DNA of 13,984 nt from Candidatus Sordicultor aquaticus (GTDB lineage Bacteria; Atribacterota; Atribacteria; Atribacterales; Caldatribacteriaceae): NCBI GenBank assembly GCA_018056825.1, contig JAGPEW010000005.1, forward strand, positions 1 to 13,984, in the 5' to 3' direction. The notes under the pieces are model-generated. The model did not search any database. It was not told the DNA's origin and saw only the letters and a list, made by a program, of their open reading frames with translations. The translations under genes and the position numbers were made by a program. Of the stretch, positions 1 to 13,984 are shown one piece after another (position 1 is the stretch's first letter; every line of letters starts with the position of its first letter).

Positions 1-346
1 TTCTATTCCAGATAAAAAAAACCGGGGCTTTAATCTCCTCTAATAATTCCTGTATTCTTTGGTAAAGAGGAATTAATTGCTTATTCTTTACTTTAAATTG
101 TCCATTTAGTTGTTTAACTATTAATTGGCTATCACAATAAAATTCAACTAGATCAGCTGGCAGATTCTTAATTTCTTCCAAGCCTCTAATAACTGCCTGA
201 TATTCAGCAATATTGTTTGTTCCGGTGCCCATAATCTCATTAATCTTTTTCCATAATTCACCATCTCGGTAAATAACTACCCCAATAGCCATATTACCTG
301 GATTAGGAATGCAAGAGCCATCTGCTCGTACTAATATTTTGGTCAT
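1..346 (-). CDS. rnhA: Ribonuclease HI-like protein. Start codon at 344-346; the C-terminus runs off the window at position 1.
   Basis: Reverse-complement translation gives MTKILVRADGSCIPNPGNMAIGVVIY...TNNIAEYQAVIRGLEE. This matches the RNase H type-1 signature (DGSC..NPG..G.G, TNN.AEY.A...L). Confidence 0.75.
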   Translation of the reverse strand, partial: MTKILVRADGSCIPNPGNMAIGVVIYRDGELWKKINEIMGTGTNNIAEYQAVIRGLEEIKNLPADLVEFYCDSQLIVKQLNGQFKVKNKQLIPLYQRIQELLEEIKAPVFFIWNR

Positions 347-360
347 AAAATCCCTCTTTT

Positions 361-837
361 TTAAGAACGATAAACAGAATTAAGTTTTTCTTTTAGAAAT
401 GACCTTAAATATGCTACTTCATCAATAAAATGAACTTTACCTTCTTCCTGGTATGGTTTAAGCCAGTTACCAGCATCAAATCTAAATAATATTACTTCCT
501 TACCATAGTTTAAGGCCAGGGCAATTTCAGAAATAGTTCCAGCCCTACCCGGTAAAGCTACAATTATATCGCTACTTAAGATATTAATTACATTTCTAGC
601 TATCCCCATACCAGTAACTATAGGAATATCTATATACTGTGACGCCCAATGAGGTTCATCAGTTGGTAAAATACCTATGGTCATGCCACCATAATCTTTA
701 GCCCCTCTTGCTGAAGCTTCCATGATACCGGAGGCTCGACCTCCATTTAACAGAATCCACCCTTCCTGGGCAATCATGGCTCCAATTTGATAGGCATATT
801 CTTCATCTTCTGGATTTATAAATTGAGCACCACCCAT
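361..837 (-). CDS. LOG / TIGR00725-family Rossmann-fold protein (SLOG, lysine-decarboxylase-like nucleotide-binding).
   Basis: The 158-aa ORF contains GGRASGIMEASARGAKDYGGMTIGILP and PGRAGTISEIALAL, which are typical LOG/TIGR00725 motifs. Confidence 0.7.
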   Translation of the reverse strand: MGGAQFINPEDEEYAYQIGAMIAQEGWILLNGGRASGIMEASARGAKDYGGMTIGILPTDEPHWASQYIDIPIVTGMGIARNVINILSSDIIVALPGRAGTISEIALALNYGKEVILFRFDAGNWLKPYQEEGKVHFIDEVAYLRSFLKEKLNSVYRS

Positions 838-1310
838 AACCCCAATAATTATTTTTTTAATGGAACATCCCCCTCCTTTTTTAAAATAATAAATTTTTTA
901 CTATTTTTACTTTTTATTTTATTATATACTATACTATAATTATGTCATTTAGATAATACAAGATTTTGGTAGGTATTTTCAGGAATTAACTTGCCAATGA
1001 GTTAATAAAACTTGTCCTCGTGAAAAGGGTGAAAGATATACTTACCTCAAGAAATAAATTAAAGAAAAAGAAGAAACCTTCTCTATAGATAACTAGATCA
1101 GAAGGCAAGCTAAAATTCCAGTACCTAAAGCTATTAGTCTTTAAATTAACGATAATGGTAGGTCAGCAGGTTTTTTAGGAGATTTTCCAGTTCCTTGATT
1201 AGCAATTAAGAAAAGAGAGAACAATGGGACACTTACTAACTGTGGTAAAAGAAGTAAATACCTCTTGACTATTTTAGGTAAGGTAATACCGCCTACCGAA
1301 AATATCCTTG

Positions 1311-1343
1311 ATAACTAAAACTAAAGCAAAACCCCTCTATTTA
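1311..1343 (-). terminator. Possible oligo-T (archaeal-type or weak intrinsic) terminator after the zinc-ribbon gene.
   Basis: On the minus strand, immediately after the TAA stop at 1344-1346, the sequence reads GAGGGGTTTTGCTTTAGTTTTAGTTAT. There are three T-runs but no strong hairpin. Confidence 0.2.
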
Positions 1344-1583
1344 TTATCTTTTAAAAATTGAACCATCTTGGAGGCCTCGTCTTGCCGGTTTTACTCCTAT
1401 CTTCTCCGCTTTTGCCCCACACTTAGGACAAAATTTATAGTTTTGCCAAAATCTCCAGATGAAGCCACAGTGGGAACAGGCTATAGTCAGCGGTTCACCA
1501 CACTCTCGGCAATAATCGTCCCCACTACTGGCTATGGTTGCTTTACATTTAGGGCATTGAAATGCCCCGCTTTTTCCCTCCAT
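1344..1583 (-). CDS. Small double zinc-ribbon protein.
   Basis: 79 aa with two Cys4 ribbons: CPKC...CREC and CSHC...CPKC. It lies 75 bp downstream of the GvpO-like gene on the same strand. Confidence 0.65.
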   Translation of the reverse strand: MEGKSGAFQCPKCKATIASSGDDYCRECGEPLTIACSHCGFIWRFWQNYKFCPKCGAKAEKIGVKPARRGLQDGSIFKR

Positions 1584-1658
1584 TTTCCTCTTCCTTTCTT
1601 TTTTATACCTTTGTATTTCAAATATTATTTTGTTAGCCTTTCTTTATCCGTCTTCCCT

Positions 1659-1916
1659 TTATCCTTCTTCTCCAGTGTCACTGCGTTTACGCAAGCCCTT
1701 TCTTTCGTAGCTAATGAGCTCGCCATCTTCATTTAAAATAACCTCATAATTTCCTAAGAGATCCATAGCATCAGGAATAGATTTTTTTTCCACCATTTCA
1801 ATAGTAACATGCCAACCCTTTTCATCTTTAAATACTCCCGTAACTCCTGAGGGTTTTAGTTTAGAAAGTTCCATTAATTCTTTTACTGCACGTTCAATTG
1901 CCTCGTTTGCCTTCAT
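1659..1916 (-). CDS. gvpO: GvpO-like gas-vesicle protein.
   Basis: The 85-aa ORF contains GVTGVFKDEKGWHVTIEMVEKKSIPDAMDLLGNYEVILNEDGELISYERKG. This fits the GvpO pattern (DDGW.V.V.VVE...PD..D..G.YEV.LD.DGEL..Y.R). A GGGGGAG Shine-Dalgarno sits about 10 nt upstream. Confidence 0.6.
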   Translation of the reverse strand: MKANEAIERAVKELMELSKLKPSGVTGVFKDEKGWHVTIEMVEKKSIPDAMDLLGNYEVILNEDGELISYERKGLRKRSDTGEEG

Positions 1917-1968
1917 TCGGGTACCGCTCCCCCCTTCTTTTTTGGTTGGAAATTCTAATTATGTTTGA

Positions 1969-2553
1969 TTATGCTTTTATAGCTTTAATTTGTAATATAC
2001 CATTTTTATAGCTTAAATATAACTCCTGTTTAACCGGGTAGGGTAAATTTACCTCTTTATAATATTCTCGCAAGTTACCCTGAGCAGAGATAGTGAGGAC
2101 ATTACCTTTTACCTCAGTTTTAATATCTTGCTCGGCTACCCCCGGTAATTCAGCAATTATCTTTAGGTAATCCCCTTCATCGAAGATATCTATCATTACC
2201 TCTTTTTGCTGTTTTAAAGCTGAGTTTTTCGTCTTTGAAGAAGGTCTAGGATTCCCCACCGTAGTTCGAGGAGGAATAATTGTCCTTCTCCCTTCCTTGG
2301 AGTCTATTTTTTTTAAAGGAGTTACTTTTAACTGTCGGTCTACCTCTTTATTAATCACCCTTAGTCTTTCCTTAAAGGCTTCTGATTTTTCTAATTCTTT
2401 GGTAATATCTCCCAAGCCTGGAATAAACTTCCCCAGTCCGCGGACGACACTACCCGCTACTCCTTCTGCTTCCTCTTCTTTGTCTTTGGCTTCCAACTTT
2501 TTAAATTTCTCTTCTAGTTCTTTTAGCTTTTCTTTCTGGTCTTGATCTTCCAT
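1969..2553 (-). CDS. gvpH: GvpH-like protein with a C-terminal Hsp20/alpha-crystallin domain.
   Basis: The C-terminus reads IDIFDEGDYLKIIAELPGVAEQDIK...SYKNGILQIK, an alpha-crystallin-like beta-sandwich. The N-terminal half is K/E-rich. It is paralogous to the ORFs at 10400-10939 and 4180-4677. Confidence 0.6.
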   Translation of the reverse strand: MEDQDQKEKLKELEEKFKKLEAKDKEEEAEGVAGSVVRGLGKFIPGLGDITKELEKSEAFKERLRVINKEVDRQLKVTPLKKIDSKEGRRTIIPPRTTVGNPRPSSKTKNSALKQQKEVMIDIFDEGDYLKIIAELPGVAEQDIKTEVKGNVLTISAQGNLREYYKEVNLPYPVKQELYLSYKNGILQIKAIKA

Positions 2554-2578
2554 TTTATCCCTCCCCTAGGAAGTTTAA

Positions 2579-3835
2579 TTATTTACCTTTACTTCCTTTA
2601 CTTTCTTCTGCCGAGGTAGTAGGTTTATCCACAAAGCTATAAGGGGGCCAGGGCCCTGAGAAATGAACGGATAGCCCTTCCATATTATTAATTATTTCCA
2701 GCTCATTTCCCAACTCCTCAACCTTCTCTTTAGGCACCAAACAAGATAGATTCATCATCATTACCTTGTTCTTATCCACCTTCTTGGTCTTTTCCACCTT
2801 AATTTCTTCCACACATTTTTTTATTCTTCCATAAAATTCCTCAAAATATTTATCCGCCAGCTTATCCATCTCTTGTTTTGCGATATTCTCCAGCTTTTGC
2901 TTATACATATAAGCCATTCCTGGAGATTTGGAGGCCATTTCCTCTTTTATTTTTCTAATCTCCTCACTTTGTTTTGAAATTTGTTCACTTATTACTTGAG
3001 GATCGTAGGAGATCTGTATTCCATATTCCTCTTTTCCTTTAATCTTCTTTATAATTGTCTGATAACTTTCGTAATCTTCTTTTAGCCAATCCTTTACTAC
3101 CTTGGTGGAATCAGCATTATCTTTAGGCTGAATTATGGTATCAAAGCCCAGCGGAAGGATGGTATCAAATCTCTCTTTGGCTACATCGAGGACTCTTTGA
3201 TGGCTCTTTACCCACTCCTTTACCTTCTCATTATCCTCGGAGGCATAGGGCTCCAGAGGACAGTTATGAACAATAGCACATATACCTTTATAAGGGATAG
3301 TATAAACTTCACTACCCTCTATCCCTATTTTCCCTAAGCTTATTGTTTCTCCCCTATTGGCTATACCATAAAGGTATCTCCCTTCAGCTCCCCTGGAAAT
3401 TACCGGCTCTGCTTCCCTCAATTTAGCTGAACTAACTGTTTTCCTCTCTTTACTTTCACTTTTTACTGACTCGGCAGAGGGAGAAGTTTTTTTCTCAGAT
3501 TGAACCGCTGGTTCTTCTTTCTCTTTAATCTCACTTTTGTCTAACTCTTCGGGGGAGGTGAGTTTTTGGAGTTCTTCCAGAGACTTCTCTAAATTTAAAA
3601 CTTTAGCCTCTATTTTTTCTAATCTTCGAGTCAAAGAAGATTGGTCTTCTTTTTGTTCGGCTTCCTTCTTAATCTCTCCCCTTTGTAAGGCAGCTATTAA
3701 GGTCATCAAAGCGTGAAGCTCTGCCTCATCAGGTTCCTGGTTCATTACCGCCAGCATCTTTTTAATATTTAACTCATTTATCTCTTCCCCCATACTATTT
3801 AACGCTAAAGCTAAAGCTATATAGGTACATTCCAT
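2579..3835 (-). CDS. gvpL: GvpF/L-family protein with a long N-terminal extension (P1/P2-stalk-like domain plus charged linker).
   Basis: The C-terminal ~265 aa read RYLYGIANRGE...ILPLGFDTII...HFSGPWPPYSFV, which are GvpF/L hallmarks. The N-terminal ~57 aa read MECTYIALALALNSMGEEINELNIKKMLAVMNQEPDEAELHALM. A ~95-aa E/K/S-rich linker follows. Confidence 0.8.
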   Translation of the reverse strand: MECTYIALALALNSMGEEINELNIKKMLAVMNQEPDEAELHALMTLIAALQRGEIKKEAEQKEDQSSLTRRLEKIEAKVLNLEKSLEELQKLTSPEELDKSEIKEKEEPAVQSEKKTSPSAESVKSESKERKTVSSAKLREAEPVISRGAEGRYLYGIANRGETISLGKIGIEGSEVYTIPYKGICAIVHNCPLEPYASEDNEKVKEWVKSHQRVLDVAKERFDTILPLGFDTIIQPKDNADSTKVVKDWLKEDYESYQTIIKKIKGKEEYGIQISYDPQVISEQISKQSEEIRKIKEEMASKSPGMAYMYKQKLENIAKQEMDKLADKYFEEFYGRIKKCVEEIKVEKTKKVDKNKVMMMNLSCLVPKEKVEELGNELEIINNMEGLSVHFSGPWPPYSFVDKPTTSAEESKGSKGK

Positions 3836-3866
3836 TTGTACAACCCCCGTCTTCGTTAAAGTCTCC

Positions 3867-4193
3867 TCAAATACCTTGCTCCTCAGCTTCCTCTTTCCAT
3901 CTCTCCGGATTTACTATCCTATCTACTACATCATCTACTATCTCATCCAAACCATCCCTTACTGCTTGCACCGAATCGGTAATCCCTTGTTCCTCTTTTA
4001 TCTCTTCAATGGCTATATCTAAATCCATTAAAGCTTCTCCCAATCTTTCCACTTCCTCTTCAGTTAAAACTCCGCTTTCCATTCTTTTAAAACCCTGAAT
4101 CCTCAAAGCATCTCTAATTATTTCCACTAAAGCCATTACCAGACCTAATAAACCGTGTTTCAGATTATCTTCATCAACATCAAGGGTAGACAT
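3867..4193 (-). CDS. gvpK: GvpK-like gas-vesicle protein.
   Basis: 108 aa containing LLGLVMALVEIIRDALRIQGFKRMESGVLTEEEVERLGEALMDLDIAIEEI. This fits the GvpK consensus (LV.LV..VVELLR....RQA.RR.E.G.L...E.ERLG..LM.LE). Confidence 0.65.
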   Translation of the reverse strand: MSTLDVDEDNLKHGLLGLVMALVEIIRDALRIQGFKRMESGVLTEEEVERLGEALMDLDIAIEEIKEEQGITDSVQAVRDGLDEIVDDVVDRIVNPERWKEEAEEQGI

Positions 4194-4677
4194 CTTTTTT
4201 CTCCTTCTTTAAGACAATTTCCAAAATACCATTTTTATAAGATTTCTTCACTATCCTTAGAGGCTGGGATAGTTTAATACTGCCCAGGTCAGCCAAAATC
4301 ACTAAACTATCCTCCTCCTCAAAGAGGTCTACTCCTCCTTTTCTGATAACCGGGATATCCTCAGTTAGCCACCAGGAGAAGAGGATCTTTTCTCCACTCA
4401 GAGGATCGATCTTCGCCTCCTCAAACTTTACCAGGGGTCGGCCTAAGATCTTCAGGGAGGTAGGATTTATCACCTCTTTTAAGCGGCTTAATACTTCATT
4501 ATGGTTTTTTGCCCCTATTAAGTTACTCAATTCTTGGATATTAGCATATCTATTCCTATAGAGAAAGATCAATATATCTCTGCTCTTTTTGTCTAAAACC
4601 TCGGCTAATTTATTTATACCCTCTTCTTTTTCTTTATCATCTATTCCTTTTCTCTCTTTATCTTTTTTCTCTTTCAT
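4180..4677 (-). CDS. Fusion of a winged-helix (wHTH) domain and a degenerate Hsp20/GvpH-like domain.
   Basis: The middle reads SRDILIFLYRNRYANIQELSNLIGAKNHNEVLSRLKEVI, which is wHTH-like. The C-terminus reads VDLFEEEDSLVILADLGSIK...SYKNGILEIVLKK, matching the C-termini of the two other Hsp20-like ORFs. Its first 14 nt overlap the gvpK start. Its stop overlaps the start of the 4674-5075 ORF (ATGA). Confidence 0.55.
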   Translation of the reverse strand: MKEKKDKERKGIDDKEKEEGINKLAEVLDKKSRDILIFLYRNRYANIQELSNLIGAKNHNEVLSRLKEVINPTSLKILGRPLVKFEEAKIDPLSGEKILFSWWLTEDIPVIRKGGVDLFEEEDSLVILADLGSIKLSQPLRIVKKSYKNGILEIVLKKEKKDVYP

Positions 4678-5075
4678 TCTTTATATCCACACCTATAGCA
4701 ACCATTTTTCTCAAACTGTTCGGTTACTAACTTGGTCCCACATTTTGGGCATTTCTGGTAATATCCCCTCTTTTTATCAATTTCCTCCAACCCGACGGAA
4801 AGACCAGAACTTTTTTTGGCCTTAGCTAACTCAATATCCTCTTCGGTCCCTTTCCAACCACAGACAAAGCATCCCTTTTCTATTAAGTCCTTTTTTATCA
4901 GCTTTTTGCCACATTGAGGACAAAAGGCATAATACTCACTTTTTTCCAATTTTTTCTTTTCTTCTTCTTGAGCCTCTTTTACATAATCTAATACTTTATC
5001 ACCAACTCCCAGAGTGGGATCGATCCCCAAAAATCCTAAATCACTAAATCTCCCCTTCTCTTTTTTTTCACTCAT
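4674..5075 (-). CDS. Double zinc-ribbon protein.
   Basis: 133 aa with two ribbons, CPQCGKK...GCFVCGW and CPKCGTK...GCYRCG. The signature matches the ribbon tails of the GvpA-like ORFs. GGAGAAGCG precedes the ATG. Confidence 0.65.
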   Translation of the reverse strand: MSEKKEKGRFSDLGFLGIDPTLGVGDKVLDYVKEAQEEEKKKLEKSEYYAFCPQCGKKLIKKDLIEKGCFVCGWKGTEEDIELAKAKKSSGLSVGLEEIDKKRGYYQKCPKCGTKLVTEQFEKNGCYRCGYKE

Positions 5076-5153
5076 CGCTTCTCCTTTCTTTGGAGATCCT
5101 TTATCTCCTGCTCAATTACTTCAATCTCTCGCTGGCAATATTCGAAATACCAT

Positions 5154-6245
5154 TTAGCATACTTTATTCATTTTTCTCTTTACTCTCGGGCTTACCCACC
5201 CACAGTAAATACATCCTCTCTCCAAAAGTTCTTTAACCGGGCTCTCTTTTCCACAATGAGGGCAGGTCTCCCTTTCCCCTTCTTCCCCTTCCTTACTTTT
5301 AGATAAGAGCTGCTCCCATTCCTGCATTGCCTTTTTATTCCCTGAAAAATACTCTTCTCTCCCTTCGTGTCTTACCACCAGTTCTTCTTCTACCTTTAAT
5401 ATCCCGCCACCTTCTTTGGCCTTCTCTATTCTTACCCCTTTTATTTCTTTTAGCTCTACCTCTAAGGCAATACTTCCATCAAAGTCATACCACCAGAGGA
5501 GTCTTTGGTTAGTAAGATAAAGATAGCCAGCTTTCCAGGTCTTACTCTTGGTCCCACCAGGGGCAGGAAGCTCCATTAAGTACCACATCTTCTCCTTGCG
5601 CACTAATTCCTCATTTTCCACTAAGAATTTTGAGGCATTATCGTCTAATACTGGTGCCGGTATCTCTTCAAATGGAAGTCCCTTCTCTTTCATTTTCTCC
5701 TCTATAGCCTTTTTTACCGTAGAAGCATCGGTAGGGTGAAGTTTTTCTATTCCCCCACTTTTAAGGAAGAGATAAAGATAGTCTGTCTTTTTTTTGGCGA
5801 TATTCTCCTTCCTTTCCATAGCATAGCCTTTAATATCTTCATATCTTGTCTCAAAAAGTATCTCGGAAGGCTCTTTTCTATACAAGAAGACCCTTTGATT
5901 AGTAACATAAATATGTCCTGGTCTCCAATTATGCCATATCCCCTTAGAATGCCACTCTGAACCAAACATCTTGATGATAACTTCTTCACCTTCTCGCAAT
6001 AAATTATCCTTCCCCTTTCGCCTTATTTCATCTCGGGCCGCCATCCTTTGTGCTTCATCCCAATCTTTCCACATTCCATAATCTAACATAGTCTGCATCC
6101 CAGCCAAAGCAGTCTTTAATTTAATCCCCAACAGAGGAATCCCCGCTATATGAATAATCAGATCGGTATCCAACATTATACCTTTATCTAGAATCCGGTC
6201 TAAGAGGTCTACTAAGGTAGTTTCTGTATTACGAGTCGGTTCCAT
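5154..6245 (-). CDS. GvpA/J/M-like domain fused to two bacterial-PH/GRAM-like domains and a C-terminal zinc ribbon.
   Basis: The N-terminus reads [48 protein letters not shown], a GvpA-family core. Two repeats follow, [16 protein letters not shown]... and [18 protein letters not shown]..., each with the G.LY.TNQRL bPH/GRAM hallmark. The C-terminus is CPHCGKES...GCIYCGW. Confidence 0.75.
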   Translation of the reverse strand: [363 protein letters not shown]

Positions 6246-6249
6246 TTAC

Positions 6250-6630
6250 TTAATTTTCCTCCAAGGGCAGGGGCGAAATTAATTTTTTTTGGGCAGCTTT
6301 GGCCTTCGCACTAATCCATCCACACCAGGGGCAACCTTCATTCATCAACTCTTCAGCAGAAACCCGCTTACCACATTGGGGACACTCTTCCTTAGCTACC
6401 TTAGCCTCTTGCCAGGCAGCAGTTTCGTAATTTGTGCCACTGGGAAATTCCAGACCATATTTAGCCGCGGTCTCAAAAGAGGCCAGGGCTGCCCTTACCT
6501 TTACCCCTAAGAGCTCCACTCCCGCTACCGATACGGTAATATCTGCATTGATAACCAATCCCTTATCTAAGATACGGTCAATAACATCCACCAAAGTAGA
6601 AGAATCATCCCGCGAAGCTTCTAAAGCCAT
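6250..6630 (-). CDS. GvpA/J/M-like protein with a C-terminal zinc ribbon.
   Basis: The N-terminus reads [50 protein letters not shown]. Compare the GvpA consensus [45 protein letters not shown]. The C-terminus is [23 protein letters not shown]. It lies 4 bp from the preceding gene. Confidence 0.8.
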   Translation of the reverse strand: [126 protein letters not shown]

Positions 6631-6633
6631 CTT

Positions 6634-6870
6634 TTATTCCTCCTTTTTTCTAATAATCTTTAACCTTTCCACCAAATCTGCTTCCAACTGAGCGTAATCT
6701 GCTTCACTTATCTTACCTTCATCTAAGAGTAATTGAAGTTCCTTAAGCCTTTTCTTTACCCCCTCCTCGGTTACCAATCGCTCTTTATCTACTTCATTTA
6801 CAATCCCTTCCAGGACTTGCTTCCCTAATTGTAAGGGGGTCGATAATAAACTACGAATAATAAAAGCCAT
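6634..6870 (-). CDS. gvpG: GvpG-like gas-vesicle protein.
   Basis: 78 aa with a hydrophobic N-terminus (MAFIIRSLLSTPLQLG) and the GvpG-like C-terminus KELQLLLDEGKISEADYAQLEADLVERLKIIR. Confidence 0.6.
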   Translation of the reverse strand: MAFIIRSLLSTPLQLGKQVLEGIVNEVDKERLVTEEGVKKRLKELQLLLDEGKISEADYAQLEADLVERLKIIRKKEE

Positions 6871-6884
6871 AGTCTATCCTCCCT

Positions 6885-7628
6885 TTAGGTCCCTTTTAGT
6901 TTTATACTAACAAAATTATAAGGTGGAACAGGACCAACATATTTAAACTTTAATTTATCTTCATATTTTTGAGCTAACTCATTTACCCTTTGGTCGAAAT
7001 TTTTTTCTTTATCTTTATCTACTAAAAAAGAAGAATTAAGGAGCATTTCAATACTAAGAGGTTTATTAAGACGACTGTCAAAGGCTATCTCCTTAAGAGA
7101 GTTATAAATTCTTTGGCCATACTTTCTTTCCCATTCAGTAACCGTGGACTCCACCAATTTACCTACCTTAAGCTGGGTTTCTTGAGCCTCCTTTGCCGAG
7201 GAAGAAGCAATTTTTTTTCTTAACTCCTGAAAGTTCTTACCCCTACTTTCAATTTCTTTAATAACTGCCTCCCTTTCCCAAAAAACTTTTACTCCTACCT
7301 CTACTTTGCCCTGGAGTTTTTTCATTTCTTTTTTTATTTCGGGATAATTCAATTCGAGGAGCTCAATTATTTTCTCTTCATTTTCCGCGACCGTTCCAAA
7401 ACTCATAGGGAGAAGGAGGTATTGTCTCATAATCTCTTCCAGAACCCGAGTATGAGCTAAAATATTCGCTCGCGTAGGATCATATTCTTTAACTTCAGCC
7501 TCGCTTACTACTGCCGCTAAATCCTGATAATTGATCGTGTATACTTTGTTTTTTTCTATCCCCAAAAAATTAAACTCTTTTCTCTCTGGTTCCTCTATAA
7601 AACCATAAATATATCTACCTATTGGCAT
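6885..7628 (-). CDS. gvpF: GvpF/L-family protein (paralog 2).
   Basis: RYIYGFIEE...DLAAVVSE...LLPMSFGTV...VGVKVFWE...YVGPVPPYNFVSI. Confidence 0.8.
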   Translation of the reverse strand: MPIGRYIYGFIEEPERKEFNFLGIEKNKVYTINYQDLAAVVSEAEVKEYDPTRANILAHTRVLEEIMRQYLLLPMSFGTVAENEEKIIELLELNYPEIKKEMKKLQGKVEVGVKVFWEREAVIKEIESRGKNFQELRKKIASSSAKEAQETQLKVGKLVESTVTEWERKYGQRIYNSLKEIAFDSRLNKPLSIEMLLNSSFLVDKDKEKNFDQRVNELAQKYEDKLKFKYVGPVPPYNFVSIKLKGT

Positions 7629-7648
7629 TTATTCCTCCCCTTATAGCT

Positions 7649-9796
7649 TTATTCTAAACGGGTCTTTAAGGTCTCAATAGCCTCTGCAAAATGTTTCCTG
7701 GAAATTTTAAGGGAAGCACACTCACTTTTCCCTTCTTTTCCCTCCGTCTTCTTTTTAATAAATTCCCTGATCGCTGCCATAGAGGCTTCCCGGCAGATAG
7801 CTTCTATATCCGCCCCGCTTAAACCTTCTGTTTCTTCGGCTAATCTAGCAGGGCTTACTTCTTCCAGCGGTTTCTTCTTCAGGTGAACCTGAAAAATCTT
7901 TTCTCGGCTCTTTTTATCGGGGAGGGGTAAATCTAAAATCACGTCAAATCTCCCCGCTCTCAGGATAGAAGGGTCTATCAAATCCTTTCTATTAGTAGCG
8001 GCTAAGACTACTACTCCCTTCAGCTCCTCAATCCCATCGAGTTCAGTCAAAAATTGGCTAATTACCCTTTCGGTTACCTGAGAATCACCACTCATCCCCC
8101 GCTGGGGGACTAAAGAATCAATCTCATCTAAAAACAAAATAGTAGGAGCCGCTTGCTTGGCTTTAAGAAATACTTCTCTAACCCCCTTTTCTGATTCTCC
8201 GATATATTTGGACATAAGCTCTGGTCCCTTCACCGCTATAAAATTTACTTCACTTTCATTAGCTAAGGCTTTGGCTATTAAAGTCTTTCCACACCCTGGA
8301 GGTCCAGATAATAGAATCCCCTTAGGCGGCCTGGTATGGGCATAGTCAAATAAATCAGGATATTTTAAGGGCCACTCTACTGCCTCGATGAGGGTTTGTT
8401 TAATCTCCTCCAGTCCGCCTACATCCTCCCATTTTACATTAGGAACCTCCACAAAAACTTCCCTGATGGCTGAAGGCTCTACCTCTTTTAAAGCCTCTCT
8501 AAAATTTTCCATAGTTACCTCTAATTCCAAAAGTAACTTATAAGGAACTTCCTCTAATTCAAAATTAATATTGGGTAAGATGCTTCGCAAGGCGTTCATC
8601 GCTGCTTCTCGGCATAAAGCCTCTAAATCAGCCCCTACAAAACCATGAGTAATCTGAGCTATCCTCTCTAAATCTACATCTTTAGCTAAAGGCATTCCCC
8701 GGGTATGAATATGAAGAATTTCTAAGCGAGCCTTTTGGTCGGGGACCCGGATAGAAATTTCCCGATCAAACCTTCCTGGTCGGCGGAGAGCAGGGTCAAG
8801 AACATTAGGAATATTGGTAGCTCCAATGACTATCACTTCTCCTCGAGATTCTAATCCATCCATCAAAGCTAATAGTTGTGCCACCACTCTTTTTTCCACC
8901 TGCTTTTCTCCCCCCATTTCTTCCCGCTTGGGGGCAATAGCATCAATCTCGTCGATAAAGATTATAGCTGGGGCATTGGCTTCCGCTTCCTTAAATACAT
9001 TTCTTAAACGAGCTTCACTTTCTCCATAAAACTTTCCCATAATCTCGGGTCCACTTATATGGCTAAAATAAGCCTCTGTTTCCTGAGCCACCGCCCGAGC
9101 CATCAAAGTCTTTCCACATCCTGGAGGCCCATAGAGTAAAACCCCTTTAGGGGGTTCAATGCCCAATCTCTCAAAAATTTGGGGATATTTTAAAGGTAGC
9201 TCAATCATCTCTCTAACTCTCTGTATTTCCCGGTCCAACCCGCCAATATCCTCATAAGATATCCTCAATCTTTTCCCTTTTGCCTCTTTCTCCCCTTTTA
9301 ACTCAATAACCGTCCCGCTATGAATCAAAACTACTCCCTGGGGAATAGTAGAAACTACCATAAAGTCAAAACTGCGCGCCCCAAAGAGATTAGCTCTAAT
9401 CCTGTCCCCCGCGACAAGGGGTAGACCTTCTAACAGACTGCCTAAATATTTAGTATCCTCACCACCCCGCATCGATCTCATTAAGGCTAGAGGAGAGAGG
9501 ACTATTTTATCAGCTAAGCGGTATTCAGTCTTTTGAATGCTTACTTTTTCATCTAATCCAGCCTGAGCATTTTCTCTTAATAAGCCATCCATCTGAATAA
9601 TGGCTTTCCCTCTATCTTCGGGGTAGGCTGGCATCACTTTAGCTACCGTCCTTCTTTTGCCATAAACCTCTACTATATCCCCTATTTCCACACCTATTTT
9701 TTTAAAATCGGCGGGGTCTATCCTAACTATTGCCCTGCCTACATCTTTGGGTTTGGCTTCGGATATCTTTAGAGTTAATTCGGTTTCTTTAGTCAT
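7649..9796 (-). CDS. Cdc48/VAT/p97-like double-ring AAA+ ATPase (N-domain + D1 + D2).
   Basis: 715 aa. The N-terminal double-psi-barrel-like segment reads [35 protein letters not shown]. There are two Walker A motifs ([18 protein letters not shown] and [19 protein letters not shown]) and two Walker B motifs ([12 protein letters not shown] and [12 protein letters not shown]). SRH-like arginines are present. Confidence 0.9.
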
Positions 9797-9813
9797 ACTT
9801 TTTTTATTCTCCG

Positions 9814-10386
9814 CTATTTTTTATTATAAATTAAGTAGCTAATCTTAATATCCCGGGATAAATACTTATCTACCCGGTGTTCACTTCCTATAAATAAAAT
9901 TCCAGTCTCTCCTTCTCTTAAGGTCTTATTTATTCTCTGGGCGATATAATTATCTCTTCTTATGAGTAATTGCTTACCTCCTTTTTTTTGTTCCTTTTTA
10001 TCCGAAGAGGTGGCTATATCTTTAATATAGTTATACTCCTCAAGGAGTAGATCTTTGCTCTCTGTCCCTTCCAATTTAGCCCCTTTATTAATTAATTCTA
10101 AGATTATCTTATAATTTATGCTCCCTCTTTCGGCTAACTTCTGGACTATTTCTAACTCTTTACCACAAAGAGGCAATCCATCCTGGTATATTCTCACCTT
10201 CTCATAATTCAATTGTAGGCTTTCAATCTTATCCTTTATCCACTGCCAGAGCTCATTTACTAATTTAAGATGTTCTTCCCATTTTTCTTCCCCAAATTTT
10301 AAGACATACTCTTCCCTTAAATGAGTAGCCACCAACCCCATTTCTAGCTCCGTGTGAATGATGGGAATATAAATTAATCTCCTCAA
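9814..10386 (-). CDS. Hypothetical protein (cluster orphan, 190 aa).
   Basis: Intact ORF 17 bp from the Cdc48-like gene and 13 bp from the Hsp20-like gene. No motif recognised. K/E/I-rich. Confidence 0.5.
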
Positions 10387-10399
10387 TTTTTCTCCTGAC

Positions 10400-10939
10400 T
10401 CAAGCCTTCTCCAGTTTGATCTCTAATATCCCATTTTTGTAAGAGGGCTCCATGCTCTCTTTCTTTACCTTAGAAGGAAGCAATATTTCTTTAGCATATT
10501 TTCTATCCTTATTTTCGGCAGCTAATTTAAGAATATCTTCTTCCAGATTAATTTTAATATTCTCCTCAGCAATTCCCGGTAGTTCCGCAATTACTAAAAT
10601 ATGCTCCTTTTCATCGAATACATCGACTATTGGTTCCCTGACTTCCTCTATTACTGGACCTTTAGGTGTTTCTTTGATATTACCAAAAGTCTCGATTATA
10701 GGTTTATCCCCTACCAGAGTCCTTATGCTAAAACCATAAACCCCTTTAGCCTTTTCCGGTAACCCCTTAATCTCGCCAACTTTTTTAAATTCCCCGCCTT
10801 CTTTACTCACCTTATCTACTAAGTTAATCAAATCACCAATTCCTTTAAATATTCCTCCTAATCTCACTTTCCCCTTACTAAAATCAAATTCTATACCTTC
10901 TTTTTCTTGCTTATCCTCTTTTTCTGTCATTTTTCTCAC
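10400..10939 (-). CDS. gvpH: GvpH-like Hsp20/alpha-crystallin-domain protein (paralog 2).
   Basis: The C-terminus reads VDVFDEKEHILVIAELPGIAEENIK...SYKNGILEIKL. The N-terminal LGGIFKGIGDLINL parallels LGKFIPGLGDITKEL of the 1969-2553 ORF. Confidence 0.6.
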   Translation of the reverse strand: MRKMTEKEDKQEKEGIEFDFSKGKVRLGGIFKGIGDLINLVDKVSKEGGEFKKVGEIKGLPEKAKGVYGFSIRTLVGDKPIIETFGNIKETPKGPVIEEVREPIVDVFDEKEHILVIAELPGIAEENIKINLEEDILKLAAENKDRKYAKEILLPSKVKKESMEPSYKNGILEIKLEKA

Positions 10940-11023
10940 CCCCTCGCATGATGCCTTTTACCTTTTATCTGTAATACCCCTTTATTTACTTTCTTTATAT
11001 TTATGGTGGACTATCTATTCATT

Positions 11024-11794
11024 TTATTTTAAACTCAAATTAACAAAACTATATGGTGGTGTTGGCCCGATATATTTAAACCTTATCCTTTCCCCATACT
11101 GTTTATCTAATTCGCTTATCTGCTGGTCAAACTCTTTTTCCCGAGTCCTATCTACTAAAAAAACTGCATTTATCAGCATCTCATCACCAGAAGTATTATT
11201 AAGATGAAAATCATAAGAAATTCTTTTTAAGCTATTTACTATCTTTTGACCCTCTTGTTCCCTTTTTTCCTCTAAAGCCTTCTTAACCATTTTACCCAAT
11301 TTTACTTTCTCTTTATAATTTTCCTGGTCATTATCCTTCTCCTGGCCTGACCCTTTAGCTATTTTTTCTCTATAAGATTTTATTTTCTCATCTTCCTCCG
11401 CGATCTCTTGAAAAATAAACTTCATCTCTTGCCAGTAAGCCTTTACTCCTAACTCTATCTTATTATCCAGATCCCTTAATAAACCTTTAAGTTCTAAATA
11501 TCTCCTTCTTAAAAGACTGCGCACCTCTTCGGCACTACTTGCCACCGTGCAAAATCTCATCGGAAGAACAGTATAATCTCTCATTACCTCTTCCACTACC
11601 TTTTCATGAGCAATTAAATTCTCTCGACTTATTACATATTTATCCATAGGAAAGTTGCTAATTACGGCGCTAAGGTCCTCATAACCAATAGTGGATACAA
11701 TATCTCCCCGCCCACCAATGCCCAAGGGGCCAAAATTTCTTCCCTCGTTAGTCCCAATAATGCAGTAAATATATTTACCCTCCTCTATCATCAA
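11024..11794 (-). CDS. gvpF: GvpF/L-family protein (paralog 3).
   Basis: KYIYCIIG...DLSAVIS...VLPMRFCTV...ELGVKAYWQ...YIGPTPPYSFVNL. This is the strongest GvpF-like match of the three. Confidence 0.85.
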   Translation of the reverse strand: MMIEEGKYIYCIIGTNEGRNFGPLGIGGRGDIVSTIGYEDLSAVISNFPMDKYVISRENLIAHEKVVEEVMRDYTVLPMRFCTVASSAEEVRSLLRRRYLELKGLLRDLDNKIELGVKAYWQEMKFIFQEIAEEDEKIKSYREKIAKGSGQEKDNDQENYKEKVKLGKMVKKALEEKREQEGQKIVNSLKRISYDFHLNNTSGDEMLINAVFLVDRTREKEFDQQISELDKQYGERIRFKYIGPTPPYSFVNLSLK

Positions 11795-12102
11795 ATCTTC
11801 TCCCTTCGCTGCCTTATTTCCTCCTCTAAGGCTCGAATATAAATAGGGGATAATTTTCTTCCTTTTATTTTAGCCCATTCTTGAGCCATTATTTTACGGG
11901 TAAGGACTCCTAAAGAAGCTACGTTTATCCTCTTTGGTTCCTTCCTCTTCCCTCTAAGCCTTTCCCTTCCTTCTTCTAACCATTTTTCTTCTTCCTTTTC
12001 CTTATCTCCTATTTTTCCAGCCTGATATTCTTTTAAATCTAGATAGGTTATCTCTAAAAAGGAATCTTCTTTTTTCATAACAGGATAGAATTTACCTCCC
12101 AA
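11791..12102 (-). CDS. Hypothetical small basic protein (103 aa, cluster orphan).
   Basis: The ORF lies between gvpN and the gvpF paralog. Its stop overlaps the gvpF start (ATGA). It is K/R/E-rich with no recognised motif. Confidence 0.45.
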   Translation of the reverse strand: MGGKFYPVMKKEDSFLEITYLDLKEYQAGKIGDKEKEEEKWLEEGRERLRGKRKEPKRINVASLGVLTRKIMAQEWAKIKGRKLSPIYIRALEEEIRQRREKI

Positions 12103-12124
12103 ATTAACAAAGCATTGGCCTTAA

Positions 12125-13042
12125 TTAGCAATATTTATTGATGAGAGCCTTTACTATATTTTTTACTTTAGTTTGACTAAGACTACTCCCTAAGCGGCTA
12201 CTCTCCGAAGCTAAAATATCCTGACAAATTTCTCTAAAAATTTTATTCTTAGCACTTACTGCGCCACCTAAAATTCCCAAACTTTTAGCGATCATGATAC
12301 AACCCCGAATAGTGGGTTTAAATTCACATTCTTCATAAGTGCGGAGTTCCCTAACGATATCTACAATTTTTTCTGCCTCAGCATAAGATAATTCAGATTT
12401 AGCTTGAGTAATAGCAATTTCAGTCTCTCGGTCAAAGTAATCTAAATCTATAGTAATCATCCTATCCCGCAAGGCATCCTGACTTCTATGAACCCCAGCA
12501 TATTCTTCGGGATTGCTGGTAAAAATGGCTACAAAGTTAGGATGAACTTTTAAATAATTTTCCTGTCCCCGCGCTACTGGTAAATCCATCATCTTTTCTT
12601 GTAAAATAGAAAGAAGGATATTATTGGCTTCAGGACGAGAACGGGTAAATTCATCATAGATAAGGGTAAAGCCATACTCTACGGCTACAGTCAAACGGTT
12701 ATCTACCCAACTCCTCTGTACATCTTCCTCCGCTTTCATCACCGAATGAATAAAATTATCTACTACTCTCCTGGTCCGATAACCGTGCTCTCCCCCCACT
12801 AAATCAGAGGTAGTAAATTCGTCATCTCCATGAATCATAATTACTGGTCGATTTATTAGATGGGCTATATGTAGGGCTAGAGTGGTCTTTCCGGTTCCCG
12901 TTGGTCCCCTAAAATGGACCGGAAAGCCTGCTCTAATATAGCCTAAGGTTCGCGTCGTTACCTCTTTGGTAAACTTTGTCTCCACAAAATTAGGCAGGGC
13001 GCGAGCTTTTAATACAGTTGCTATTTCGGCTGCCATAACCAT
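12125..13042 (-). CDS. gvpN: GvpN, a CbbQ/NirQ/MoxR-type single-domain AAA+ ATPase.
   Basis: 305 aa with Walker A FRGPTGTGKTTLALHIA and Walker B FTLIYDEFTRS. The overall length and pattern are typical of GvpN. Confidence 0.85.
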   Translation of the reverse strand: MVMAAEIATVLKARALPNFVETKFTKEVTTRTLGYIRAGFPVHFRGPTGTGKTTLALHIAHLINRPVIMIHGDDEFTTSDLVGGEHGYRTRRVVDNFIHSVMKAEEDVQRSWVDNRLTVAVEYGFTLIYDEFTRSRPEANNILLSILQEKMMDLPVARGQENYLKVHPNFVAIFTSNPEEYAGVHRSQDALRDRMITIDLDYFDRETEIAITQAKSELSYAEAEKIVDIVRELRTYEECEFKPTIRGCIMIAKSLGILGGAVSAKNKIFREICQDILASESSRLGSSLSQTKVKNIVKALINKYC

Positions 13043-13057
13043 AAATCACCTCACCGT

Positions 13058-13453
13058 TTAATATTCAATATCCACTTCTTTAAAATTGGAAAGCTTAGAA
13101 CCTTTTGTAGCTATTGGAGGGGGGTCTGCTCTTCTCTCGCGCTCCTTCTGAAGTTTGCGTCTTAATTCCATAATTTTTCGGTTTTTATTCACTATCATAG
13201 CTAATTTCCTTCGGCTAGCCAGAAGTCTCTCCCTGTTTCTCTGCATAGCCAAATCCTGTTTAGTAAACCTTTGTCTTTCTCTTTCTAAAGCCTTAGCCAA
13301 GTCTTCTTCATCTACCAAAGAGTACATTTCTTTTAATTCTTCCTCGGTTTTAGATAAAGAATTAGTAGTTTTAATTTTTTGTTCTTCTCTATTCTCCCTA
13401 CTGGTTTTGATATCTCGAAAGGTCTTAATGTTTCTTAAACTTTCATTTTTCAC
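13058..13453 (-). CDS. Hypothetical R/K/E-rich coiled-coil protein in the GvpC-like position. Predicted GTG start.
   Basis: 131 aa, for example RERQRFTKQDLAMQRNRERLLASRRKLAMIVNKNRKIMELRRKLQKERERR. The start codon is GTG (cac at 13451-13453), preceded by the Shine-Dalgarno AGAGGTGG. It lies directly upstream of gvpN. Confidence 0.5.
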   Translation of the reverse strand: MKNESLRNIKTFRDIKTSRENREEQKIKTTNSLSKTEEELKEMYSLVDEEDLAKALERERQRFTKQDLAMQRNRERLLASRRKLAMIVNKNRKIMELRRKLQKERERRADPPPIATKGSKLSNFKEVDIEY

Positions 13454-13500
13454 CGTTAACCACCTCTATTATTTTTTCGCCAATATTGGTAAAATATCTT

Positions 13501-13522
13501 CTCTCCCCTTTACTCGGGAGAG
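13501..13522 (-). promoter_or_regulatory. GC-rich hairpin (7-bp stem, 8-nt loop) in the 128-bp spacer upstream of the cluster.
   Basis: ctctccc(13501-13507)-ctttactc-gggagag(13516-13522) is a perfect inverted repeat. On the minus-strand transcript it is followed by AAGATATTTTACC. It could be a weak terminator or attenuator between the regulator gene and the gvp operon. Confidence 0.3.
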
Positions 13523-13581
13523 TCCTGGAATCCTTCCGGATATTATGCCTATAAATATTTAACGACTAAGCCAATTTTTGT

Positions 13582-13950
13582 CTAAAGAGGGTAATACAAA
13601 TTATCTTCTTTCCTGATCTTGTTTTCTTCTACCAACTCTTTAGTTATGGTTATATACCATCTCCAATCTTTACCTATTTCTGCACCAATTTCCACAAGCT
13701 TTATCCCCTCAGGATGAGATTTTATTAAATTTAATACCTGCTCTTTCTCTTTCTCGGAGGTTTCCTCCCCCATCTTCTCCACTTTTTCTAGAACTTCTTC
13801 TTTTGTTTTTTTACCTTCAGAAACTGTAGAAACCGGCTTTACCCCTCTTCTCTTTTCTTGCAGACTAGAGGTCAACTCTTGCCAGGAAGCAGACATCTCC
13901 TTTAGATCAGCCCTTATCTCCTCTTGAACTTTATGAAAATCACTTAACAT
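13582..13950 (-). CDS. Putative winged-helix DNA-binding protein. It may be 5'-truncated by the window, since the frame stays open to 13984.
   Basis: The C-terminus reads EQVLNLIKSHPEGIKLVEIGAEIGKDWRWYITITKELVEENKI, which is wHTH-like. There is no in-frame stop between the first ATG (13950) and the window end. Confidence 0.45.
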   Translation of the reverse strand: MLSDFHKVQEEIRADLKEMSASWQELTSSLQEKRRGVKPVSTVSEGKKTKEEVLEKVEKMGEETSEKEKEQVLNLIKSHPEGIKLVEIGAEIGKDWRWYITITKELVEENKIRKEDNLYYPL

Positions 13951-13984
13951 ACTACTTACTTCACTTTTTATCCCCTGATTATAG

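Follow-up and report, generated by a model that had tools for sequence, protein, structure and literature searches.

Gas vesicles have been studied as buoyancy organelles and as genetically encoded reporters for ultrasound and magnetic resonance imaging, and the accepted list of gvp parts was derived from a few aerobic or phototrophic models. GvpA forms the shell, the proteins J, M, F, L, G, K and O nucleate the vesicle with GvpL as the hub, and GvpN enlarges it, while GvpH-like proteins prevent the aggregation of GvpM (PMC9501494). In the haloarchaeal p-vac cluster, GvpH is non-essential and keeps GvpM from aggregating, whereas the small protein GvpI is basic, with an isoelectric point (pI) of 10.8 (PMC9501494). 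The gvp genes of Methanosarcina barkeri have the order gvpAAA-NOFG-JHKLM (PMC9501494), and those of Bacillus megaterium and Serratia sp. ATCC 39006 read gvpAPQBRNFGLSKJTU and gvpA1CNVF1GWA2KXA3Y / gvrA-gvpHZF2F3-gvrB-gvrC, respectively. Here, we analysed a gvp-like gene cluster of Candidatus Sordicultor aquaticus (Atribacterota) that occupies most of contig JAGPEW010000005.1 (assembly GCA_018056825.1), whose whole stretch of 13,984 nt is referred to as the window. An initial annotation had described this cluster as either a strongly elaborated gas-vesicle system or a Gvp-derived nanocompartment with a different function. With a probability of about 0.85, we consider the window to be the larger, promoter-distal part of a genuine Atribacterota gas-vesicle operon, which is cut within the second gene after gvpA.

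Every substantial open reading frame (ORF) of the window is located on the minus strand, and 19 co-directional genes (g00-g18, positions 1344-13984; Table 1) form the operon, with neighbouring genes separated by -14 to 128 nt; a spacing of 506 nt, the first large one, lies 3' of g18. The operon had initially been taken to start at 13453, but g00, which runs off the contig end, belongs to it as well. The window proteins were scanned with Pfam and NCBIfam profiles, and scores were compared with the curated cut-offs. The core gvp families were found above these cut-offs, including GvpN, three GvpF/L proteins (222-239 bits against a PF06386 cut-off of 23.6), GvpG, GvpK, GvpO and two proteins of the GvpA family (PF00741), the exception being gvpA itself. 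GvpN also matched PF07728 (E=6.7e-20) and has both a Walker A (GPTGTGKT) and a Walker B (LIYDEF) motif. The two GvpF copies are paralogous to each other (E=6e-60), and the third member of the family is closest to the GvpL model (NF045778, 182.6 bits; cut-off of 200 not reached). Of the two PF00741 proteins, the shorter one has haloarchaeal GvpJ as its best NCBIfam model (98.8 bits, cut-off of 125 not reached; GvpA, 60 bits), and the longer one haloarchaeal GvpM (91.2 bits, cut-off of 109 not reached). By profile scans, structure prediction and profile comparison, the domain calls of the initial annotation proved essentially all correct: the GvpF/L, GvpN and GvpA-like domains were assigned above cut-offs, and the genes are conserved together in related loci.

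The closest published gene order is that of M. barkeri, in which multiple gvpA genes (in the lineage of the window, a leading gvpA in the relatives described below) are followed by N, O, F, G, J, an H-like gene, K, L and M; both clusters lack gvpC, gvpD, gvpE and gvpI. In comparison, the window adds a Cdc48, a 190-amino-acid (aa) ChaN/Tiki-like protein, two small basic proteins and zinc-ribbon proteins, has a second GvpF and carries GvpO at the operon end. The Bacillus/Serratia-type order suggested initially is a loose likeness: N, F, G, K, L and two GvpA-like minor proteins are common to these clusters and the window, whereas the order differs and the Bacillus and Serratia clusters lack Cdc48, the PH, zinc-ribbon and P1 fusions and the ChaN/Tiki-like protein. 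Homologs of GvpP/Q/R/T/U and GvpV/W/X/Y/Z were not detected in the window. Three proteins of the Hsp20 type and two that are small and basic (pI 10.0 and 9.7) occupy positions in the window comparable to those of p-vac GvpH and GvpI, and the basic ones have no detectable homology to anything named.

No major gvpA is present in the window, whose only PF00741 proteins (126 and 363 aa) are J-like and M-like. However, a search with the 190-aa protein (g06) led to longer Atribacterota contigs that encode 93-94% identical proteins. One of these contigs (locus L086, positions 6114-20174) matches the reverse complement of the window from end to end at 93.9% nucleotide identity, and a second (L089) does so at 93.4%; a third (L090) shows 93.3% identity over reverse-complement positions 1-13059, where L090 ends. 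The three contigs come from different samples or sources (GCA_028716105.1, JGI 3300006094 and JGI 3300013886), and short contigs with identical proteins occur in two further datasets. Upstream, all three relatives carry a 67-aa GvpA. The genes of this region encode, in order, a PAS-HisKA sensor kinase, a sigma-54-dependent response regulator, a 120-aa response regulator and the canonical 67-aa GvpA, followed by a 264-aa helical protein, a 237-aa helical protein and the homolog of g01. The incomplete gene g00 aligns to the 237-aa ORF of L086 (5806-6519), and its counterpart in the relatives is the second gene after gvpA, inside which the contig, and with it the window, ends. That gvpA is missing from the window is thus due to truncation and is not a property of the system, because the relatives and six further loci carry a short GvpA-family ORF upstream of the g00 homolog, directly so in L038, L041, L051, L067, L074 and L079.

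The region upstream of gvpA also contains the probable control genes. In L086, a sigma-54 consensus of the -24/-12 type, TGGCACATTTTTTGC (TGGCAC-N5-TTGC), is found at 3990-4004 with zero mismatches, and the consensus is placed between the activator gene and the response-regulator/gvpA genes in L086, L089, L091 and L092. In Atribacterota, in an Omnitrophica metagenome-assembled genome (MAG) and on a 1.16-Mb contig, gvpA is preceded by genes for a histidine kinase and a sigma-54 activator, together with one or two for single-domain response regulators. The dedicated regulators gvrA, gvrB and gvrC of Serratia, of which GvrA is an NtrC-type sigma-54 activator, parallel the kinase, sigma-54 activator and response regulator of L086, L089, L091 and L092. 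The slot just after gvpA is the usual position of gvpC. In the relatives, the helical proteins encoded after gvpA gave weak ApoLp-III-like Pfam matches only, and the internal-repeat signal was barely above shuffled sequences in the 237-aa protein and moderate in the 264-aa protein, with offsets of 40-65 residues rather than 33.

To describe the distribution of this cluster type, the fusion of a GvpM-like protein with PH-like domains and a zinc ribbon (GvpM-PH-Zn, g11) is a convenient marker. There are 615 relatives of g11 in a large protein collection, with source labels that include Methanophagales, Methanothrix, Coprothermobacterota, Actinomycetota and Clostridium. In GTDB, searched with one genome per species, the fusion is present in 274 species genomes, and the carriers include Clostridia, Desulfobacterota, Bacteroidota, Chloroflexota, Atribacterota, Methanotrichaceae and ANME-1 archaea. 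Eighty loci were kept out of the 274 species, gene content was determined by searching six-frame ORFs with the window proteins, and counts refer to 81 loci or to the 31 loci of at least 18 kb. GvpK and a GvpJ-type protein were found in all 31 of the longer loci, GvpL and the g13 family in 30 each, a full-length Cdc48 within 10 kb of GvpM-PH in 21 and an Hsp20 in 20. Among all 81 loci, the g13 family is present in 62, the double-ribbon protein (g12) in 28 and the g06 family in 18; short gvpA genes, one to four in number, occur in many of the related loci. The closest locus, L075 of Atribacterota, has nearly the order of the window, with 46-83% identity for g00-g10. The accessory parts are therefore a conserved feature of a widespread cluster type, not a peculiarity of the window, as judged from these sequence comparisons.

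Identity along the operon is mosaic. The products of g00-g09 are closest to Atribacterota L075, and those of g10-g13 to Methanophagales L006 (GvpJ-Zn, 93%; GvpM-PH, 61%; double ribbon, 64%; g13, 54%); for GvpK, L006 and Methanothrix L003 are similarly close. The order J-M-2Zn-g13-K-L of the window is the archaeal one, and the other Atribacterota (L075 and L081) have J-...-K-L-M. Such a pattern might be produced by an assembly or binning artefact that joined bacterial and archaeal gvp fragments. Nevertheless, the whole window is collinear, at 93-94% identity, with three contigs, and the gene arrangement is taken as real because these come from three different samples; identical proteins also occur on the short contigs of two further datasets, and the flanking sigma-54 activator genes are bacterial. 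We therefore regard the probability of a chimera as negligible and have rejected it. A mis-binned archaeal contig was also considered, given several hints of archaeal origin (the archaeal Hsp20 model, Cdc48, the P1 domain and the best GvpM-PH matches), and was rejected in view of the 93-94% identity to three Atribacterota contigs with sigma-54 activators and the 46-83% identity of g00-g09 to L075. The mosaic identity (2579-6630 versus 6634-13984), together with the archaeal gene order, suggests that a sub-module may have been exchanged between archaea and bacteria.

Gas vesicles have been observed in organisms that carry this cluster type. Desulfosporosinus cupriresistens shows gas vesicles by transmission electron microscopy (TEM) in sporulating cells, and the gvp clusters of D. 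fructosivorans are stated to be identical to those of D. cupriresistens (PMC12739157). The locus of D. fructosivorans (L018) encodes GvpM-PH, a P1-like GvpL, a g13-type protein, GvpJ, GvpK and Cdc48. Desulfosporosinus is thus the closest organism with documented vesicles; the GvpM-PH-Zn of L018 is 43% identical to that of the window, its gene order is J-g13-K-L-M as compared with J-M-2Zn-g13-K-L, and neither a g06 homolog nor a double-ribbon protein was detected in 21 kb of L018. Among the archaea, Methanothrix thermoacetophila forms gas vesicles and its two gvp clusters are transcriptionally regulated (PMC10470525), and Methanothrix loci have two gvpA genes followed by J(Zn)-M(PH)-2Zn-g13-K-L. 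By analogy, the Desulfosporosinus micrographs and Methanothrix would lend indirect support to gas-vesicle formation by the operon of the window.

A different function, that of a Gvp-derived compartment which does not hold gas and whose shell is built of elaborated GvpJ/M-like proteins with PH domains and ribbons that recruit cargo, would agree with the lack of a major gvpA in the window, with the large extra domains on both of its GvpA-family proteins, and with the many carriers that are sediment or subsurface anaerobes in which a need for flotation is not obvious. However, the same operon is headed by a canonical 67-aa GvpA in the 93-94% identical relatives, short gvpA genes (one to four) are present in many related loci, and the J-like and M-like proteins match minor rather than major shell paralogs. 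In addition, the gas vesicles that TEM has revealed in organisms with such clusters are ordinary ones (PMC12739157). Such a compartment is thus highly improbable, and the best-supported reading is that the cluster is an uncharacterised "anaerobe type" gas-vesicle system rather than a different nanocompartment. Of the two alternatives offered by the initial annotation, it is the strongly elaborated gas-vesicle system that is supported, and the other is disfavoured by the gvpA genes of the relatives and the visible vesicles of carriers.

The most conspicuous addition to the known parts is the Cdc48/VAT-type protein (g07), which contains CDC48_N (96.5 bits) and CDC48_2 (44.1 bits) domains, two AAA domains and two AAA_lid_3 domains. 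It shares the N-D1-D2 architecture of archaeal VAT. Its ATPase motifs, Walker A (GPPGCGKT) as well as Walker B (DEID), are intact, and its aromatic pore loops read KFYG in D1 and KYIG in D2. HbYX is the C-terminal motif by which archaeal Cdc48 docks on the 20S proteasome. In contrast to the archaeal proteins, g07 sits in a bacterial gvp operon and ends in ...ETLKTRLE, without an HbYX motif or a penultimate Tyr. These features fit an active unfoldase that would not dock on the 20S proteasome, as far as knowledge of the family goes, and a partner, should Cdc48 have one, would be the ChaN/Tiki-like protein and not the proteasome. We identified 36 full-length Cdc48 genes linked to gvp genes, almost all of them co-directional with the latter. 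An Hsp20 gene is located directly upstream in at least 15 and a GvpF/L gene directly downstream in 18 of these 36, and the positions are fixed, either N-Hsp20-Cdc48-F-G or directly after GvpM-PH. Two full-length Cdc48 genes are present in the clostridial loci L005/L015, L017, L037 and L046, one in the N-Hsp20-Cdc48-F-G slot and one directly after GvpM-PH. In the window, the gene of a small heat-shock protein (sHsp) is close upstream of the unfoldase gene, an arrangement that would suit a handover of substrates from holdase to unfoldase and recalls the disaggregation pair of sHsp and ClpB in bacteria.

Three Hsp20 paralogs had been called in the initial annotation, and this holds in full for two of them. 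A complete alpha-crystallin domain is present in g05 (PF00011, 35.1 bits against 20.8, E=1.5e-8) and in g16, which is paralogous to g05 (E=1e-21; hhalign probability 99.9%; NF041800, 83.8 bits). In g13 the domain is degenerate: profile-profile comparison recovered the first and last alpha-crystallin segments (hhalign probabilities of 98.7% and 98.9% for the Hsp20a and Hsp20b families, respectively) with an internal deletion of about 30 residues between them, and the N-terminal half gave a weak match to HTH_24 (E=0.025). We infer that g05 may act in a GvpH-like role. Another chaperone link within gas-vesicle clusters was observed in L091 (19928-20624) and L092 (17385-18416), where one of the GvpF/L paralogs (PF06386) also contains a fused DnaJ (J) domain (PF00226).

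The 190-aa protein shares the EreA/ChaN/Tiki/TraB-like fold. Its match to PF01963 (TraB/PrgY/GumN) reached 16.2 bits, below the cut-off of 26.8, and its conserved residues (H11, E77/E109, R144-D145 and H170) would suit a predicted His/Glu/Arg active site; it is a probable hydrolase. Members of this family were found inside a gvp cluster in every context examined, distant homologs of 48-49% identity included, and the latter, from the Omnitrophica MAG and the 1.16-Mb contig, are encoded between the response-regulator genes and gvpA.

Cdc48 and Hsp20 are generic protein-quality-control families, and archaeal loci of the same type have no linked Cdc48. It might thus be argued that Cdc48, Hsp20 and the 190-aa protein constitute a general stress-proteostasis island without a gas-vesicle-specific role. 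Yet their linkage is kept across many phyla in fixed positions, the g06 family was met only within gvp clusters in the contexts described above, and in the window the Hsp20a, g06 and Cdc48 genes are co-directional and spaced by 13-20 nt inside the operon. A general island is therefore unlikely, and a link of these genes to gas vesicles is preferred.

The minor shell proteins and GvpL carry a second group of additions. For the GvpM-like protein g11, the PH-domain fusion noticed initially was confirmed by PF11605 (28.6 bits against a cut-off of 24.1), with PH/GLUE/GRAM matches, and by structure prediction. The AlphaFold2 model (mean predicted local distance difference test score, pLDDT, 75.7; mostly 80-95 in the PH region) contains two units of seven strands and a C-terminal helix, at residues 89-187 and 214-319, and its best Foldseek matches in PDB are tandem-PH proteins (E from 2e-9 to 1e-6), including BBS5, FACT Spt16M/Pob3, Rtt106 and centaurin. 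In an alignment of 20 homologs, the GvpA-like core, both PH units and all four cysteines of the ribbon (C328, C331, C345 and C348) proved invariant. The ribbon type, CPxCG-x12-14-GCxxCG(W/Y), occurs in four copies in three adjacent genes, one in g10, one in g11 and two in g12; the ribbons of g12 match those of g10 and g11 with E=1.7e-10 and 1.1e-8. The DZR protein encoded by g18 has a ribbon type different from that of g10-g12.

The N-terminal domain of the ribosomal stalk protein P1 is specific to archaea and eukaryotes. A P-stalk-like fusion had been noted initially, and as a domain at the N-terminus of GvpL (g15) it is real: residues 5-55 match the N-terminal dimerisation domain of Pyrococcus horikoshii aP1 (3a1y_A) with E=1.2e-6, and a hidden Markov model (HMM) of 12 GvpL N-termini matches the aP1 fragment (52.5 bits, E=2.6e-14). 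The full P1 family is not matched by g15 (TIGR03685, 16.5 bits against a cut-off of 100), and the P1-like domain leads into a charged linker and the GvpL domain, with no P1 factor-binding tail. On this sequence evidence, the N-terminus is a borrowed P1 domain, not a ribosomal protein, and most simply it would serve as a dimerisation module. A search with the first 192 residues of g15 gave matches only at the start of the GvpL domain and is uninformative on the P1 domain. By means of the HMM, P1-like GvpL was found in 17 further loci. The domain heads the GvpL of Clostridia-type loci, among them those of Desulfosporosinus, Clostridium sp. ZS2-4, Lachnotalea, Anaerobacterium, Marinisporobacter and Dethiobacter (L005/L015, L016-L019, L021, L022, L026, L030, L033, L037 and L046), and four Chloroflexi-type loci were found as well. 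With the same HMM, the domain was not detected on GvpL of Methanotrichaceae or Methanophagales.

Based on these observations, a working model can be proposed. The histidine kinase and the sigma-54 activator, whose genes are seen in the 93-94% identical relatives, would act on the sigma-54 promoter before the small response-regulator gene and gvpA. By comparison with haloarchaeal, Bacillus and cyanobacterial work, GvpA would build the ribbed shell, the GvpJ-like and GvpM-like proteins together with GvpF, GvpL, GvpG, GvpK and GvpO would form the nucleation complex, and GvpN would drive vesicle growth. Hsp20, the ChaN/Tiki-like hydrolase and Cdc48 may form a dedicated holdase-unfoldase(-hydrolase) module, as linkage and family knowledge suggest. 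Such a module would either maintain the very hydrophobic proteins of the GvpA family in a state fit for assembly or pull out and recycle shell protein that is mis-assembled or has collapsed. The zinc ribbons, tandem PH domains and P1-like domain could be protein-protein handles on the cytoplasmic face of the nucleation complex. Gas vesicles are generally held to be extremely stable and to be lost only by collapse or dilution. A more specific proposal, that the three proteins are a dedicated ATP-driven machine that extracts GvpA-family subunits from shells or aggregates and then processes or degrades them, is doubtful at present. If it were true, gas vesicles would be subject to active turnover and quality control in many anaerobic bacteria, with the ribbons and PH domains of the minor shell proteins as docking sites, and built-in remodelling or disassembly would represent a novel principle that also provides a useful switch for acoustic reporters made by engineering.

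Several observations weigh against the interpretation of the window as part of a gas-vesicle operon of this kind. The window itself contains no gvpA, the presence of which is deduced from close relatives, no gvpC homolog was detected, and no report of gas vesicles seen in Atribacterota was found in the literature. Mthe_0071 of M. thermoacetophila, which is listed as gvpM, is no more than a candidate PH fusion. No Cdc48 is present within 10 kb in the Methanotrichaceae and Methanophagales loci, and a copy in the cluster is therefore not universally required, and clostridial clusters have Cdc48 without g06. Finally, gene linkage and knowledge of the families are the sole basis of the role proposed for the Cdc48/Hsp20/g06 module.

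Components of the Cdc48, PH, P1-like or ChaN/Tiki-like kind are missing from the Gvp proteins reviewed in 2022 (PMC9501494), and the D. cupriresistens paper does not mention Cdc48, PH or P1 domains (PMC12739157). No paper on the accessory gvp genes was found in the full-text literature that could be searched, which lies mostly outside the subscription journals. The statement of the initial annotation that such components were never associated with gas vesicles thus stands for the searchable literature but not for genomes, since gvp clusters contain these parts again and again. Public genomes already hold the cluster type in abundance, under the annotation "gas vesicle protein". What has been found is an ordinary organelle with an uncharacterised, conserved accessory layer, and it is a lead for experiments rather than a new kind of organelle. 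It amounts to a second, phylogenetically very broad cluster type, present in at least 274 species genomes, with an sHsp-paired Cdc48, a probable hydrolase family, PH/ribbon minor shell proteins and a P1-domain GvpL as conserved extras. Should these extras help or remodel assembly, they might account for the failure of many mined clusters in heterologous hosts, and they could offer handles for controlling vesicle formation and removal.

Table 1. Genes of the gvp operon in the window. Scores are in bits, with curated cut-offs in brackets.
Gene	Position	Strand	Product	Remarks
g00	13582..13984	-	C-terminal ~133 aa of a ~237-aa helical protein, winged-helix-like C-terminus	frame open to base 13984, off the contig end
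g01	13058..13453	-	131-aa basic protein, pI 10.0	conserved just upstream of gvpN
g02	12125..13042	-	GvpN, AAA+ ATPase, MoxR/AAA_5 type	TIGR02640 355.5 (266.8)
g03	11791..12102	-	103-aa basic protein, pI 9.7	
g04	11024..11794	-	GvpF paralog 1	PF06386 229.8
g05	10400..10939	-	Hsp20a, complete alpha-crystallin domain	NF041800 149.1 (140)
g06	9814..10386	-	190-aa gvp-linked protein, EreA/ChaN/Tiki/TraB-like fold, probable hydrolase	
g07	7649..9796	-	Cdc48/VAT-type double-ring AAA+ unfoldase, N+D1+D2	TIGR01243 974.7 (802.65)
g08	6885..7628	-	GvpF paralog 2	PF06386 239.1
g09	6634..6870	-	GvpG	PF05120 41.7 (30.6)
g10	6250..6630	-	GvpJ-like minor shell protein, 126 aa, C-terminal zinc ribbon CPxCG...GCxxCGW	PF00741 61.8 (25)
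g11	5154..6245	-	GvpM-like minor shell protein, 363 aa, tandem PH-like domains and C-terminal zinc ribbon	PF00741 47.5 (25)
g12	4674..5075	-	133-aa protein, two gvp-type zinc ribbons	eight Cys in four CxxC pairs
g13	4180..4677	-	165-aa protein, possible winged-helix N-half, degenerate Hsp20 alpha-crystallin C-terminus	
g14	3867..4193	-	GvpK	PF05121 65.5 (25)
g15	2579..3835	-	GvpL, P1-like N-terminal domain, then ~90-residue charged linker	PF06386 222.1, residues 152-403
g16	1969..2553	-	Hsp20b, second small heat-shock paralog	PF00011 20.0 (20.8)
g17	1659..1916	-	GvpO	PF05800 73.4 (25)
g18	1344..1583	-	79-aa double zinc-ribbon (DZR) protein, last operon gene	PF12773 38.0 (27.3)

Some of the remaining genes of the operon are conserved in related loci. 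No Pfam match above cut-off was obtained for g00, and neither g01 nor g03 matched a family in the Pfam and NCBIfam scans. Homologs of g01 precede gvpN in L012, L013, L068, L075, L077, L079 and L081, and those of g18 hold the same terminal position in L012, L068, L077 and L081. For g03, a homolog was found among 85 loci in Atribacterota L075 only, and a 95-aa ORF is present in L086, L089 and L090.

An Rfam scan of the window revealed no RNA family, and consensus scans for promoters and terminators were not above shuffled sequence (25 matches, 30.6 expected; 13 matches, 12.8 expected). A terminator-like hairpin in the spacer between g00 and g01 (13501-13522, minus strand) is GC-rich and followed by a T-rich tail, has a local fold z-score of -2.2 and is the only terminator-like one on the coding strand there. 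It was dropped as a candidate, being absent from the 94% identical relatives, in which the spacer is divergent.

In the Omnitrophica MAG contig (L092, 985-2499), a pair of genes resembling a cyclic oligonucleotide-based antiphage signalling system (CBASS), with a CD-NTase and a Cap15 effector, precedes the gvp regulators by a few kb and is probably an unrelated neighbour. Downstream of the operon in the window, after the gap of 506 nt, a SLOG/TIGR00725 (LOG-like) gene is located at 361-837 on the minus strand, and its location is conserved in L086 and L089. A promoter of its own is probable for this gene, because the best sigma-70-like match of the window (921-948, minus strand; ATGACA-16-TATAAT, 11/12) is just upstream of it. 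At 2-346 (minus strand), the contig end interrupts a gene of which 115 codons, the 5' part, are present in the window and the counterpart of which in L086 and L089 encodes a 550-aa fusion of RNase H-like and 2-hydroxyacid dehydrogenase domains.

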